Positions 27,151-33,000 are shown, counted from the stretch's first letter. The stretch is DNA of 64,000 nucleotides from Parcubacteria group bacterium GW2011_GWA1_40_21 (GCA_000996205.1 LBYO01000001.1:3077-67076); one strand, 5' to 3'. Notes: generated by a model from the sequence alone, not told the origin. Program-made: numbers and translations.

Positions 27151-27301
27151 ATCACTCAAAATGAATCGTTGCGGATTGGCGATGGGAGAGTTTTTGTTGG
27201 AGGAGGGGGTAGTTGCCGAGCGAGGAATCTTTTTCAATCATATCTTTGGCTTCGGCGCGGGCGGCTTCCACCATTTTTATATTTTTTATGGCTTCCATTT
27301 G
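27151..27301 (-). repeat. duplicated 3' end of recG (~150 bp, ~88% identical to 30839-30990); pseudogene fragment
   Basis: Encodes ...MEAIKNIKMVEAARAEAKDMIEKD..YPLLQQKLSHRQSATIHFE*, near-identical to RecG C-terminus; direct repeat with true recG end. Confidence 0.75.
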
Positions 27302-27354
27302 GCGATTTGACACTCGTCTTTTTATTTGTGGAGGTTTATGGTAGGCTGGATTAT

Positions 27355-27615
27355 ATGGAAAAGTTAAATAAAAATATTTCTTTTTACTCAATAATTATTG
27401 AAGCCTGCGAAGAAGGCGGATATTTTGCTTATTGTCCGACACTGCAGGGTTGCCACGCCGAAGGCGAGACATATGGAGAAGTTATAGATAACACACGCGA
27501 AGTTATTGAGGCTCATCTTGAATTGCGCAAGAAACATAAAGAACTCGTGTCATTCGTTAAAATTAAAAATATGTCCGATATGAATATTCAAATTCCCGTT
27601 CCAGTTAGGAATTAA
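27355..27615 (+). CDS. HicB-like antitoxin (UPF0150)
   Basis: YSIIIEACEEGGYFAYCPTLQGCHAEGETYGEVIDNTREVIEAHLE matches HicB N-domain consensus. Confidence 0.6.
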   Translation: MEKLNKNISFYSIIIEACEEGGYFAYCPTLQGCHAEGETYGEVIDNTREVIEAHLELRKKHKELVSFVKIKNMSDMNIQIPVPVRN

Positions 27616-27617
27616 TT

Positions 27618-27854
27618 ATGGGCAAGAATTTCCCAGCAGCAAATTATAGGGATATTTCAAGAGTTGCCAAAATTCTTGGGTTTTATTTTTGCCGACAAGC
27701 AAAAGGCAGTCATGAGATTTGGAGGAGAGATAAAGACGGAAGACAGACAACTATTCCCAAGCATGGGGCTAAAGTTATTAAACGCAGGACTCTAAAAGCG
27801 ATTTTAGAAGATTTCCAAATTTCAGCGGAAGAATTTATCAAATTGAAAAATTAA
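27618..27854 (+). CDS. HicA-like mRNA interferase toxin
   Basis: KGSHEIWRR...TIPKHGAKVIKRRTLKAILEDFQIS matches HicA motif; 2-nt spacing after HicB. Confidence 0.65.
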   Translation: MGKNFPAANYRDISRVAKILGFYFCRQAKGSHEIWRRDKDGRQTTIPKHGAKVIKRRTLKAILEDFQISAEEFIKLKN

Positions 27855-30752: not shown

Positions 30753-30784
30753 TAAATGTACTCAGATAGTTTCAGAGTTCTTTA

Positions 30785-30818
30785 CTACCCTCCGGTTTAA
30801 ACGGAGGGTAGTTTTTTA
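30785..30818 (+). terminator. rho-independent terminator after MVP-like gene
   Basis: ctaccctccggtttaaacggagggtag + tttttta. Confidence 0.65.
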
Positions 30819-30840
30819 TATTAAAAAATTTTCTGTCTTT

Positions 30841-33000
30841 TCACTCAAAATGAATCGTTGCGGATTGGCGATGGGAGAGTTTTTGTTGGAGGATGGGGTA
30901 TCTGTTGAGCAAGGGATCTTTTTCAATCATATTTTTGACTTCGGCGCGGGCGGCTTCAACCATTTTGATATTTTTGATGGCTTCCATGCCGATGTCGGAA
31001 ATGCCCCATTGTTTTTGGCCGTAGAGTCCGCCGGTACCGCGGAATTTGAGGTCAAATTCCGCGAGTTCAAAGCCATTCTTCGCTTCTTTGAGAGCTTTCA
31101 GACGATTCAAAGTTTTGTCGGTTTTTGTGTCGGCGAAGACATAACAGTAGGCTTGATGATTGCTTCTGATGACTCGTCCGCGGAGCTGGTGTAGCTGGGC
31201 TAAGCCAAATCTTTCGGCGCCTTCAAGCACTATGATTGTGGCATTCGGAACATTAACGCCAACTTCCACCACCGATGTCGCGACGAGAATGTCAATCTTT
31301 TTATCTTTAAAATCATTCATAACTTTTTCTTTTTCCGAAGGTTTCATTTTGCTGTGCAAAATGGAAATTTCGTATTCGGGGAAAATATCTTTTTTCAGAC
31401 GTTTGGCTTCTTCTTTGACTGATTTGGCGAGTAGCGCCATTTCTTTTGCCGGATCGGGCTCGTCAATTCTCGGACAGATGACATAAGCTTGTCTTCCGTC
31501 TTTTAGTTCCGCTCTGATTTTTTCGTAAGTTTTATCACGGTCTATTGGCAAGACAATTTCTGTTATTATCTTTTTCCTGCCCTCGGGCATTTCATCAAGA
31601 AGCGTCAAATCCAAGTCGCCGTATATCGTGAGAGCTAATGTGCGGGGAATCGGAGTCGCGGTCATTGACAATAAGTGCGGAGCGAGTAAACTTTTTTTCG
31701 CCAATTTCTGTCTTTGCGCCGTGCCGAAGCGGTGCTGTTCATCTATTATGACCAGCGCCAAACTTTTAAAGTTCACGGTTTTTTGTATCAAAGCGTGAGT
31801 GCCGATGAGTATTGGAATTTCTCCGTTCGCCACCCATTTGAGAAGCTGGGTTCTTGAGATATCCGTCCAGCCGAGTGGATTCACTTTTGAGGGAAACTTC
31901 CTGCACCCGCTGCCGGTGATAAGTCCGATATTTATATTTAAATAGGAGAAATATTTTATGAAAGATTCGAAATGCTGAGTGGCGAGAATTTCGGTCGGCG
32001 CCATATAGGCGGTTTGCAAACTCCCGAAATCTTGCCCTTTTGGACGAGTGGTCGACGTGGCGTAGACAGCGACTGCCGCGACGGCGGTCTTGCCGGAGCC
32101 GACATCGCCTTCAAGCAAGCGCGACATCGCTTGGCCTTTTTTAAAATCAGCGAGAATGTCTGCAATCGCTTTTCTCTGCGCATTCGTCGCTTTGAATGGG
32201 AATCTGCCGATAAAATCCTCCAAATCTTTTTCATCCTTGTCTATGACGGGAGCCGGATTTTTCCTATACTCAATCCTTTCTTTCTGCTTTTCAAGCTGGA
32301 TGAAAAATATTTCTTCAAACGCAAGACGCTTTCTTGCCGACTCCGCGTCCTTTATTCTGTGAGGCGAATGAATCCAGACAAGGGAAGTTTTCAGGGATGG
32401 CAAGCTGTATTTTTTCAAAATTTCTTCGGGAATCGGGTCTGTTATCTCATCAAGAACTCCCAGACTAAATGCTTTCTGTATCTTATGAAATATCCAATTT
32501 GAAGTAATGCCTCTGCTCTCCTCATATACGGGATAAAGCGTGTAATCTTCTTTTTTTTCGCCAAAGAGAGAATCGCCGACACCAATCGGCAATCTGGAAA
32601 CTGTCTCAATTTTCGGATTGCTCATATACAGCTCGCCTTTTCTTTCCGAAACTTTTCCTTCGGCTTTGACTAGGGCGTTCTCGCCGATCATCTTGGCGAG
32701 ATAGGGCTGATGGAACCAGATCGCTTTTATTTTTCCCGACTCGTCTTCTATGAAAGCTTCCGCCATCGGTATCTTTTTGATATACGCCTTGCTAGTTTTG
32801 AGTCCGCTTATTTTTCCGAAAATCACGACATTGTCTCCGCCGACAAGCGAGCCGATGTTTTTCATACTGGAAGTGTCGCCGTATCTGACAGGGAAGTGAT
32901 AGAGCAAATCTTCAATAGTCCTAATGCCGAGCTTTCGGAGCGCTGTCTTCTGAATTTCAACAAGACGGAAATTTTCTTCAATCAGAGAATTTAGCTTCAT
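30841..33000 (-). CDS. recG: ATP-dependent DNA helicase RecG
   Basis: N-terminal wedge/OB region, helicase motifs GDVGSGKT, DEQHRFG, SATPIPRT, C-terminal TRG region; 3' 150 bp duplicated upstream. Confidence 0.9.
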   Translation of the reverse strand: MKLNSLIEENFRLVEIQKTALRKLGIRTIEDLLYHFPVRYGDTSSMKNIGSLVGGDNVVIFGKISGLKTSKAYIKKIPMAEAFIEDESGKIKAIWFHQPYLAKMIGENALVKAEGKVSERKGELYMSNPKIETVSRLPIGVGDSLFGEKKEDYTLYPVYEESRGITSNWIFHKIQKAFSLGVLDEITDPIPEEILKKYSLPSLKTSLVWIHSPHRIKDAESARKRLAFEEIFFIQLEKQKERIEYRKNPAPVIDKDEKDLEDFIGRFPFKATNAQRKAIADILADFKKGQAMSRLLEGDVGSGKTAVAAVAVYATSTTRPKGQDFGSLQTAYMAPTEILATQHFESFIKYFSYLNINIGLITGSGCRKFPSKVNPLGWTDISRTQLLKWVANGEIPILIGTHALIQKTVNFKSLALVIIDEQHRFGTAQRQKLAKKSLLAPHLLSMTATPIPRTLALTIYGDLDLTLLDEMPEGRKKIITEIVLPIDRDKTYEKIRAELKDGRQAYVICPRIDEPDPAKEMALLAKSVKEEAKRLKKDIFPEYEISILHSKMKPSEKEKVMNDFKDKKIDILVATSVVEVGVNVPNATIIVLEGAERFGLAQLHQLRGRVIRSNHQAYCYVFADTKTDKTLNRLKALKEAKNGFELAEFDLKFRGTGGLYGQKQWGISDIGMEAIKNIKMVEAARAEVKNMIEKDPLLNRYPILQQKLSHRQSATIHFE

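Follow-up and report, generated by a model that had tools for sequence, protein, structure and literature searches.

Nested copies of the recG 3′ end beside stacked cassettes in a Patescibacterium: a possible route of homology-guided accretion

Patescibacteria, also known as the candidate phyla radiation (CPR), have tiny genomes in which horizontal transfer is evident and its routes are poorly understood. Here we describe the recG–ftsH locus of Parcubacteria group bacterium GW2011_GWA1_40_21, a Parcubacteria/Paceibacteria-type Patescibacterium known from aquifer metagenomes. The stretch of DNA that was analysed, called the window below, is 64,000 nucleotides (nt) long (LBYO01000001.1:3077-67076). 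In it an intact recG gene is accompanied by three copies of its own 3′ end, and between these copies lie two small cassettes, one with a hicBA toxin–antitoxin pair and one with a gene for an MVP-like protein. Loci and contigs from relatives are given by our own labels (L098 and the like).

The recG tail copies and their cassettes

The array consists of the following features, in order from recG towards ftsH.

30841-33000, minus strand: recG, 719 amino acids (aa), the conserved anchor gene whose 3′ end is the insertion point
30838-30987, minus strand: copy 3, the functional recG 3′ end (the last 147 nt with the stop, and 3 nt beyond)
28006-30837, plus strand: MVP cassette, a self-contained unit convergent with recG
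30784-30812: strong terminator of the MVP cassette
28239-30752, plus strand: MVP-like open reading frame (ORF), 837 aa (Pfam MVP_shoulder, 9.6e-26, and Vault_3)
28068-28095: promoter-like site of the MVP cassette
27956-28005, minus strand: copy 2, a recG tail remnant of 50 nt, 100% identical to 30838-30887
27299-27955, plus strand: hicBA cassette (own promoter region, hicB, hicA and spacer)
27930-27943: half of a terminator hairpin, in the hicBA spacer
27618-27854, plus strand: hicA (Pfam HicA_toxin, 52.9 bits against a cut-off of 27, 4e-14)
27355-27615, plus strand: hicB (Pfam HicB_lk_antitox, 29.9 bits against a cut-off of 27, 6.7e-7)
27148-27298, minus strand: copy 1, a recG tail remnant of 151 nt, 91.4% identical to copy 3

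The RecG protein carries the Pfam domains RecG_wedge, DEAD, Helicase_C and RecG_dom3_C, and its 537 relatives in the genome_contigs collection are, every one, from Patescibacteria. A 47-mer from the 3′ end of the gene, TCACTCAAAATGAATCGTTGCGGATTGGCGATGGGAGAGTTTTTGTT, occurs exactly three times (27152-27198, 27959-28005 and 30841-30887); the chance expectation is 0, and no match was found in 100 shuffles. Copy 1 agrees with 30837-30987 at 138 of 151 positions and still translates into the RecG C-terminus, with 7 amino-acid changes in the last 48 residues. Its mismatches are unevenly spread, as 12 of the 13 lie more than 57 nt from the stop codon (P ~0.003 under uniform divergence), and it retains more ancestral states than the functional recG tail does. 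All three copies end 1-4 nt past the recG stop codon. Direct repeats therefore flank the inserts, the target 3′ end has been regenerated, and recG itself is intact.

Copy 2 is the former recG end of a haplotype that bore hicBA; the spacer downstream of it is homologous to the recG–hicA spacer of L096, L097 and L098, and also to the flank of a recG remnant in L084. Copy 1 accompanies hicBA as a segment of homology, and its sequence in different hosts is hybrid or polymorphic. We also considered whether copy 1 might be the native tail, displaced here by a one-sided illegitimate event. In its simple form this was rejected because the hicB-proximal part of copy 1 travels with hicBA to other species.

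Family matches predict that hicB and hicA are a HicAB type II toxin–antitoxin pair. The MVP-like protein scores 90.6 bits for MVP_shoulder and 41.3 bits for Vault_3, which places it within that family. The hicBA promoter, upstream of hicB, was read by eye only, whereas the promoter-like site and terminator of the MVP cassette come from pattern matches. Relatives of the MVP-like protein are found in many bacterial phyla (6558 matches at E <= 1e-10); such bacterial proteins, with shoulder, vault repeat and SPFH domains, are very widespread and are not listed by PADLOC. The closest homologues (71-77% aa identity) sit away from recG, and for this reason were set aside as pointers to a donor.

Predicted folding of the repeats does not exceed that of shuffles (z-scores of +0.6 to +1.1), they have no dyad symmetry, and no Rfam family matches them or lies near them. 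In spite of a weak terminator-like pattern match, we therefore reject them as attC-like sites or as real terminators. A separate observation concerns the terminator hairpin ATTCCCGYGAAWRCGGGAAT, which is found after ftsH (25730-25749), after the L084 recG remnant (L084 3029-3052) and as the half-site 27930-27943 after copy 2. This common hairpin suggests that terminator modules are shuffled in the interval.

The preliminary description of this DNA had read the layout as a recG fragment, hicB-hicA, a second recG fragment, a promoter, the MVP-like gene, a terminator and recG. The nested duplications and the gene content both hold, the former by the exact 47-mer and the coding capacity of copy 1, the latter by the Pfam, promoter and terminator matches. 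The repeat coordinates were off by only 1-3 nt, while the identity of ~88% must be replaced by the measured 91.4%. It had also allowed that the repeats could be assembly collapse artefacts. This is contradicted by the junction 60-mers, each of which was found again in 13-16 fetched loci, amounting to at least 8 independent contigs in assemblies from JGI, ENA, NCBI and Logan, which cover several samples and assemblers.

Arrival, transfer and exchange of the cassettes

The MVP cassette is polymorphic within close relatives. In two contigs with flanks ~99% identical to those of the window, L098 and L111, hicA and its spacer are followed directly by recG, and the 2.88-kilobase (kb) MVP cassette is missing exactly between copies 2 and 3. 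In L096 and L097, from other species, hicBA likewise adjoins recG without MVP. The window's segment of 50-nt tail, spacer and hicA is the recG–hicA junction of L096, L097 and L098. Since hicBA abuts recG without MVP in all four of these loci, the hicA–recG junction is the older one and MVP was added later, on the recG side. A second array tells the same story. L096 reads recG, hicBA, remnant (145 nt), PemK, remnant (42 nt), and L003 reads recG, PemK, remnant (95 nt), with a PemK block 89% identical to that of L096. As L096 adds hicBA where L003 has recG, PemK and remnant, new cassettes enter next to recG. The order in the window (recG, MVP, 50-nt tail, spacer, hicAB, 151-nt tail) has the form of a C-terminal displacement array, with co-oriented orphan tails and the newest module proximal.

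The hicBA cassette is shared between species at a level that the neighbouring genes do not approach. Its core (27299-27940) is 99.1% identical between L096 and the window, against 90% for recG and 90% for ftsH; for L097 the core is 97.7% identical, against 80% for recG, 72% for ftsH and 65% for smpB. In every case hicBA is joined to the recG stop. Of 11 contexts compared, 9 share the left hicBA boundary, between ATGGCTTCCAT and TTGGCGAT; in L113 and L115 the recG-like segment adjoining hicB is absent. An identical HicA protein is encoded in 48 blocks of the assembly collection. Judged from these sequence comparisons, hicBA has moved across species to the same site. The hicBA region had no match in phage and plasmid collections, so no vehicle was identified, and a degenerate pattern of the 47-nt core had none in viral_contigs and matched only 5 metagenome contigs.

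The distribution of differences between L098 and the window is informative about how MVP was gained or lost. The two differ at 1 position over 24952-27750 and at 20 over 27750-28005, after which MVP is absent; the recG tail has 2 differences, the next 750 nt have 0, and clusters of differences are found further upstream in recG. Because of these flanking clusters of single-nucleotide polymorphisms (SNPs), the MVP insertion/deletion (indel) lies in a replacement tract rather than in a clean excision scar, and the tract is typical of allelic replacement. Other mosaic tracts are seen in L093 and L095. Together, the SNP clusters and mosaic strains point to allele exchange by homologous recombination in the flanks. 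In its hicA-spacer-tail segment L098 has an L097-type allele, so parts of cassettes have been exchanged between species.

Where exchange took place can be traced in an alignment of all versions of the 150-nt tail segment, with positions counted within the segment. The distal copy of L097 agrees with the head-to-tail form in contig L116 at 47/50, 24/50 and 27/50 positions in successive thirds. It is a hybrid, with 50 nt of element type fused to ~100 nt of its own lineage's recG tail. The non-element part encodes a different, intact-looking RecG C-terminus, and is nearest to the recG tails of the clade indicated by the L097 ftsH. The switch lies at positions 39-51, within an 11-nt identity run. 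In L112, from the window's own species, the distal copy changes from element to resident recG type between positions 58 and 72; the copies in L098 and the window change no earlier than position 94. The L003 PemK cassette has a 31-nt identical block with differences on both sides.

The exchange intervals thus coincide with local runs of identity, which measure 11 nt for L097, 17 nt for L112 and 31 nt for L003; the run in the window is ~57 nt long. Instead of a single fixed exchange core, the hicBA cassette alone shows three non-overlapping intervals (39-51, 58-72 and >=94). Remnant lengths also vary, from ~20 to 151 nt, and the PemK cassette alone has remnants of 95, 42 and 55 nt. Such variable switch points fit homology-guided exchange and not a fixed-core recombinase, because exchange would take place wherever the tails are similar enough. 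In L097, recG groups with the window's clade while ftsH and the remnant group elsewhere, which would favour the import of a linear fragment including recG.

A head-to-tail junction (hicA-side spacer, full 150-nt segment, hicB upstream region) is present in two contigs. One is L116 (804 nt, MEGAHIT k141), which holds one whole unit minus 8 nt; the other, L083, carries the window allele. These contigs suggest a circle or a tandem copy, and an assembly path could also produce them. L083 was downgraded as proof of a circle since its first 536 nt come from another organism (deformylase). A further contig, L106, was rejected as a circle, being a unique segment with 30 nt (k-1) of repeat at each end.

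The recG–ftsH interval and the search for an enzyme

On the far side of the last remnant, the window continues with four more features.

26586-27101, plus strand: orf171, function unassigned, between the last remnant and the tRNA gene
26490-26564, plus strand: transfer RNA (tRNA) gene tRNA-Ile(UAU), found by ARAGORN and Rfam
25831-26499, plus strand: HTH222, an uncharacterised helix-turn-helix (HTH) protein that recurs in the interval
23770-25716, plus strand: ftsH, the conserved gene that closes the hotspot, convergent with recG

We surveyed the interval by tblastn synteny in 47 Patescibacteria species. The gene order is the same in these species, recG followed by ftsH on the opposite strand, and their stop codons lie between 110 nt and 7.9 kb apart (5.1 kb in the window). 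The smallest, "empty" intervals hold tRNA-Ile(UAU) alone; those of L063, L010, L080, L024, L055 and L077 span 110-297 nt, with the tRNA present. The intervals of 46 species contain 138 very diverse ORFs, whose products include ribonucleotide reductase, peptidoglycan-binding proteins, YafQ and PemK toxins and an AcrB transporter. Variable content is therefore found between two conserved genes with no mobility family among those listed, as in a minimal mobile element or hotspot. Even the position of orf171, which has no credible Pfam or PADLOC match, is occupied by other genes in L111 and L084. Among 76 species representatives, recG-tail remnants were found in L003, L053 and L059 (~20 nt), and also in the metagenomic relative L084. 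No direct repeats or tail remnants of the ftsH 3′ end were found in 49 gaps.

The available sequences therefore support the recG 3′ end as a recurrent insertion point. This agrees with the preliminary description, which had taken it for a hotspot filled by successive arrivals. The empty sites that it expected in relatives exist, as the minimal intervals with the tRNA gene only and as the MVP-less strains L098 and L111; the latter, with the nested order of L096 and L003, also bear out that hicBA came first and MVP followed beside recG. At each insertion recG was kept intact and its tail moved downstream, as had been proposed.

That account had also noted the absence of an integrase or recombinase within the cassettes, leaving an actor in trans as an option. 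Pfam searches of the cassettes, of ~28 window ORFs and of the loci with remnants brought to light no integrase, transposase or resolvase, and there is no integrase or transposase among the 25 Pfam families listed for the 138 hotspot ORFs. The absence thus stands for the 64-kb window and the remnant-bearing loci, and leaves room for an enzyme acting in trans.

HTH222 was examined as a candidate actor. It lies beside ftsH in 8 of the 47 species, and its stop codon overlaps tRNA-Ile(UAU). The family numbers 2342 Patescibacteria proteins of ~220 aa, with an N-terminal HTH of resolvase/transposase type and a conserved C-terminal domain bearing the motifs LFLYWGEG and NGFGHGTC. An AlphaFold2 (AF2) model built with a multiple alignment reached a predicted local distance difference test (pLDDT) score of 87.5, while one from the single sequence (pLDDT 38) was useless. 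Compared with known folds, the confident model matched HTH domains only, in its N-terminal part, and no nuclease, recombinase or other catalytic fold; in the PDB, a profile search brought up nothing beyond an IS3-type HTH (E = 0.023). HTH222 is absent from L096, L097, L003 and L053, all of which have cassettes and remnants. Given that the model matches HTH domains alone and that cassette-bearing loci lack the gene, HTH222 was rejected as the actor.

Two relatives show further contents of the locus. In L084 a SNF2 helicase of 967 aa (15-2918) ends 3 nt before the ~88-nt recG remnant and matches DpdE/ZorD-type models (PADLOC, 1e-144); the contig begins just upstream of this gene, perhaps at another repeat. 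In L097 the ftsH product (1484-4714) is 1076 aa long, with an intein and a LAGLIDADG_3 domain.

A second site in the window may record the same tail-displacement process at a tRNA gene.

21446-21520, plus strand: tRNA-Ile(GAU), with an exact copy of its 3′ 57 nt at 21570-21626
21922-22515: a second hicB-like/hicA pair, followed by orf188 (region 21922-23133)

The duplicate is displaced by 106 nt downstream relative to the original 57 nt. In the close relative L084 the segment 21873-23150 is missing, and in L001 a 20-nt copy of the tRNA-Ile(GAU) end is found ~60 nt from the recG stop. ARAGORN places three tRNA-Ile genes within 21 kb, with anticodons AAU (5470-5544), GAU (21446-21520) and UAU (26490-26564). 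Isoleucine tRNAs with the AAU and UAU anticodons are unusual in bacteria.

The remaining observations lie elsewhere in the window. Group I introns with ORFs for LAGLIDADG homing endonucleases interrupt the ribosomal RNA (rRNA) genes (2621-3226, 4277-4768, 19115-19332 and 20045-21138), and the small-subunit (SSU) rRNA spans 17880-20239 and beyond. A family of intergenic repeats of ~100-125 nt (5702-5813, 48333-48460 and 52748-52873) is also found in L002 and L084, and is common to related genomes. A perfect tandem duplication at 12288-12435 has a 74-nt unit with the hairpin GGACATCCGATGTCC. Finally, a chromosomal gene at 54120-55985 encodes a 621-aa protein resembling the VirD4/TraG/TrwB coupling protein, which could bear on routes of DNA transfer.

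Mechanism, alternatives and known systems

With modest confidence, we read the locus as recombinase-free, homology-guided accretion at recG/tRNA-Ile(UAU)/ftsH, a process with elements of both C-terminal displacement and homologous recombination, in which the recG tail, once displaced, would provide homology that can be carried along. Of the readings considered, this is the best. Under this model, self-contained cassettes with a promoter, one or more genes and a terminator would lie downstream of recG, each with a piece of a recG 3′ end behind it. The DNA bringing a new cassette would already have it joined to a recG terminus. Recombination within the recG-homologous stretch would then set the incoming tail and cassette against the resident recG body, so that recG is completed by the incoming tail. 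The resident tail, which begins at the exchange point and includes the stop codon, would be moved downstream and kept there as a remnant of hybrid sequence; we call this "C-terminal displacement". In turn, this remnant could act as a portable homology arm, with which a unit of recG tail, cassette and remnant would enter genomes whose recG ends are similar. A circular unit would do so by one crossover, a linear fragment by two.

The host's general recombination would do the work, probably after natural transformation; we infer dependence on RecA, uptake of DNA by transformation and a circular or linear intermediate. Recombination between direct repeats would also give loss, tandem copies and gene conversion. 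The first junctions, J1 (27298/27299) and J2 (28005/28006), plausibly originated by homology-facilitated illegitimate joining, as for arrays of type VI secretion system (T6SS) and Rhs loci (PMC5361080). Genes for homologous recombination and for competence are reported to be kept, and to be common, in Patescibacteria (PMC12455944). There are also precedents for arrays that grow by displacement without an integrase (PMC5361080) and for circles that form via gene duplicates (PMC10770853).

A recombinase acting in trans would account for many of the same features. The cassettes could be non-autonomous integrative elements, of the cis-mobilizable (CIME) or integrative mobilizable (IME) type, accreted in tandem by a tyrosine or serine recombinase that is encoded elsewhere in the genome or on a helper element and acts on an attachment (att) core within the final ~50 nt of recG. 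The target 3′ end is restored by direct repeats, the newest cassette is proximal, and two contigs have head-to-tail, attP-like junctions. The block of 47-57 nt is perfectly identical in three copies while the adjacent sequence has diverged, and both the L003 PemK exchange interval and the MVP boundary at J2 fall near CCAACAAAAACTCTCCC. The tRNA 3′-end duplication nearby resembles classical integrase footprints, and an in-trans recombinase has a precedent in ICESt1/ICESt3, two integrative and conjugative elements (ICEs) that accrete in tandem at the fda 3′ end (PMC3234194). Against these points, the search for a recombinase came up empty in the 64-kb window, cassettes included, and in the loci with remnants, and the repeat has neither dyad symmetry nor a stable structure. 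One cassette's exchange points fall in three non-overlapping intervals, remnants range from ~20 to 151 nt in length (with three lengths for PemK alone), and the MVP indel is linked to flanking SNP tracts. Moreover, the native recG tail of L097 lacks the putative core, and the cassette integrated further upstream, where homology exists. Site-specific integration, which the preliminary description had read from the nested duplications, finds no support in the exchange intervals, the remnant lengths, the SNP tract or the search for an integrase; general homologous recombination fits better, and we regard an integrase acting in trans as rather unlikely.

Two further explanations have less to commend them. 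A nuclease encoded in the interval, either HTH222 or a homing-endonuclease-like protein, might break DNA near recG/tRNA-Ile, after which repair from a foreign template would copy cassettes by homing or co-conversion. The recurrence of HTH222 in 8 of 47 species, its LAGLIDADG-like motif (LFLYWGEG) with a weak match to I-DmoI (E = 0.27), and several true LAGLIDADG genes in this genome's rRNA introns speak for it, but the structural comparison, the PDB search and the absence of HTH222 from four loci with cassettes and remnants make it very improbable. The repeats might instead have arisen by local duplication or replication slippage beside unrelated insertions, with no horizontal movement, or be artefacts, given that they are short and that short-read metagenome assemblies can misjoin at repeats, with such effects in L083 and L106. 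This is largely refuted, and we give it almost no credence: at least 8 independently assembled contigs show the arrangement, species with 10-35% divergence in the flanking genes share a cassette at 98-99% identity, and the L097 remnant carries the recG tail of a different clade. Copy 1 is also more ancestral than the functional tail, the opposite of a pseudogene decaying in place.

Several observations count against homology-guided accretion. The inspected part of this genome is 64 kb, so a recombinase could lie elsewhere, and 22 further Pfam families, each a singleton among the hotspot ORFs, fall outside the 25 listed. Remnants are rare (3-4 of 76 species representatives). The varying exchange points could partly reflect gene conversion after integration and not the original crossover. 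Over 47-57 nt there is no difference among the window's three tails, and over the next 94 nt the divergence is ~13% (12/94); a conserved att core would give this pattern too. L097 is possibly a chimeric assembly joined via the shared cassette, and no near-identical RecG was found to place its "foreign" recG on an independent contig. With a chimeric 5′ end in L083, and L106 a mere k-1 unitig, circles are not proven.

If homology-guided accretion is correct, the locus offers a concrete, sequence-level route by which the tail of a conserved gene serves again as a landing pad and moves with the cassette as a homology arm, allowing spread between species and ordered stacking of cassettes without an integrase. 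If general, such a mechanism would account for hotspots without mobility genes in streamlined genomes, and recent acquisitions could be spotted by a simple rule, the presence of orphan 3′ ends from core genes. It would also offer a design for genetic tools in transformable CPR bacteria, with cargo joined to ~150 nt of recG tail; transformation of one Patescibacterium, Southlakia epibionticum, is reported. More tentatively, and with some doubt on our part, these may be a distinct class of "self-targeting" cassettes whose sole mobility determinant is the 50-150-nt 3′ end of a host gene (recG, perhaps tRNA-Ile), and which spread and stack in an integron-like manner through DNA uptake and general recombination.

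Integrons share an ordered array that grows at one end, and toxin–antitoxin cargo is common in them. The recG array has no intI, no attI and no attC hairpins, and its cassettes have their own promoters, so it is not an integron. Its layout is like the accretion of ICEs and CIMEs at fda in Streptococcus thermophilus (ICESt1/ICESt3; PMC3234194), with insertion at and regeneration of the 3′ end of a conserved gene, flanking direct repeats and tandem units that lack an integrase. Those arrays need a tyrosine integrase, a fixed att core and a helper ICE, whereas the search at recG turned up no integrase, exchange points there are variable and the cassettes are single-function units of 0.7-2.9 kb; the layout therefore agrees, and the recombinase gene and the fixed core do not. 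The pcp-bracketed cfr(C) cassettes of Campylobacter coli are likewise bracketed by two copies of a host-gene segment, and a circle with one copy integrates at the homologous gene without a recombinase (PMC10770853). That system has been demonstrated by experiment and involves whole-gene repeats and resistance genes, while the recG tails are 50-150 nt long and a circle is suggested by two contigs only.

Minimal mobile elements (Saunders & Snyder 2002, cited in PMC3787668) also have variable genes between a conserved pair, no mobility genes and mosaic flanks, and are attributed to homologous recombination in a naturally transformable lineage. They arise by a double crossover in both flanks and leave no duplication; at recG, one addition after another is recorded in nested copies of the tail, which can themselves supply homology.

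The C-terminal, or sequential, displacement arrays of Rhs, contact-dependent inhibition (CDI) orphan modules and Vibrio cholerae T6SS effector–immunity loci have a full gene followed by co-oriented, displaced 3′ fragments with their former neighbours; the newest module adjoins the gene, an integrase is absent, and a homologous anchor with or without illegitimate joining, then spread by homologous recombination, has been proposed (Jackson 2009; Kirchberger 2017, PMC5361080). In those loci the tails are different toxin domains, the cargo is the cognate immunity gene and diversification of the tail is the point. At recG there are no alternative toxin tails, as the same RecG C-terminus is regenerated each time; the cargo is unrelated to RecG (toxin–antitoxin pairs, MVP, a SNF2 helicase and a pilin-like protein), and the remnant travels with the cassette into other species. 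The recG array would thus extend C-terminal displacement from polymorphic toxin loci to a housekeeping gene, and works most like a combination of such displacement, as in Rhs, CDI and T6SS loci, with minimal-mobile-element hotspots (PMC3787668).

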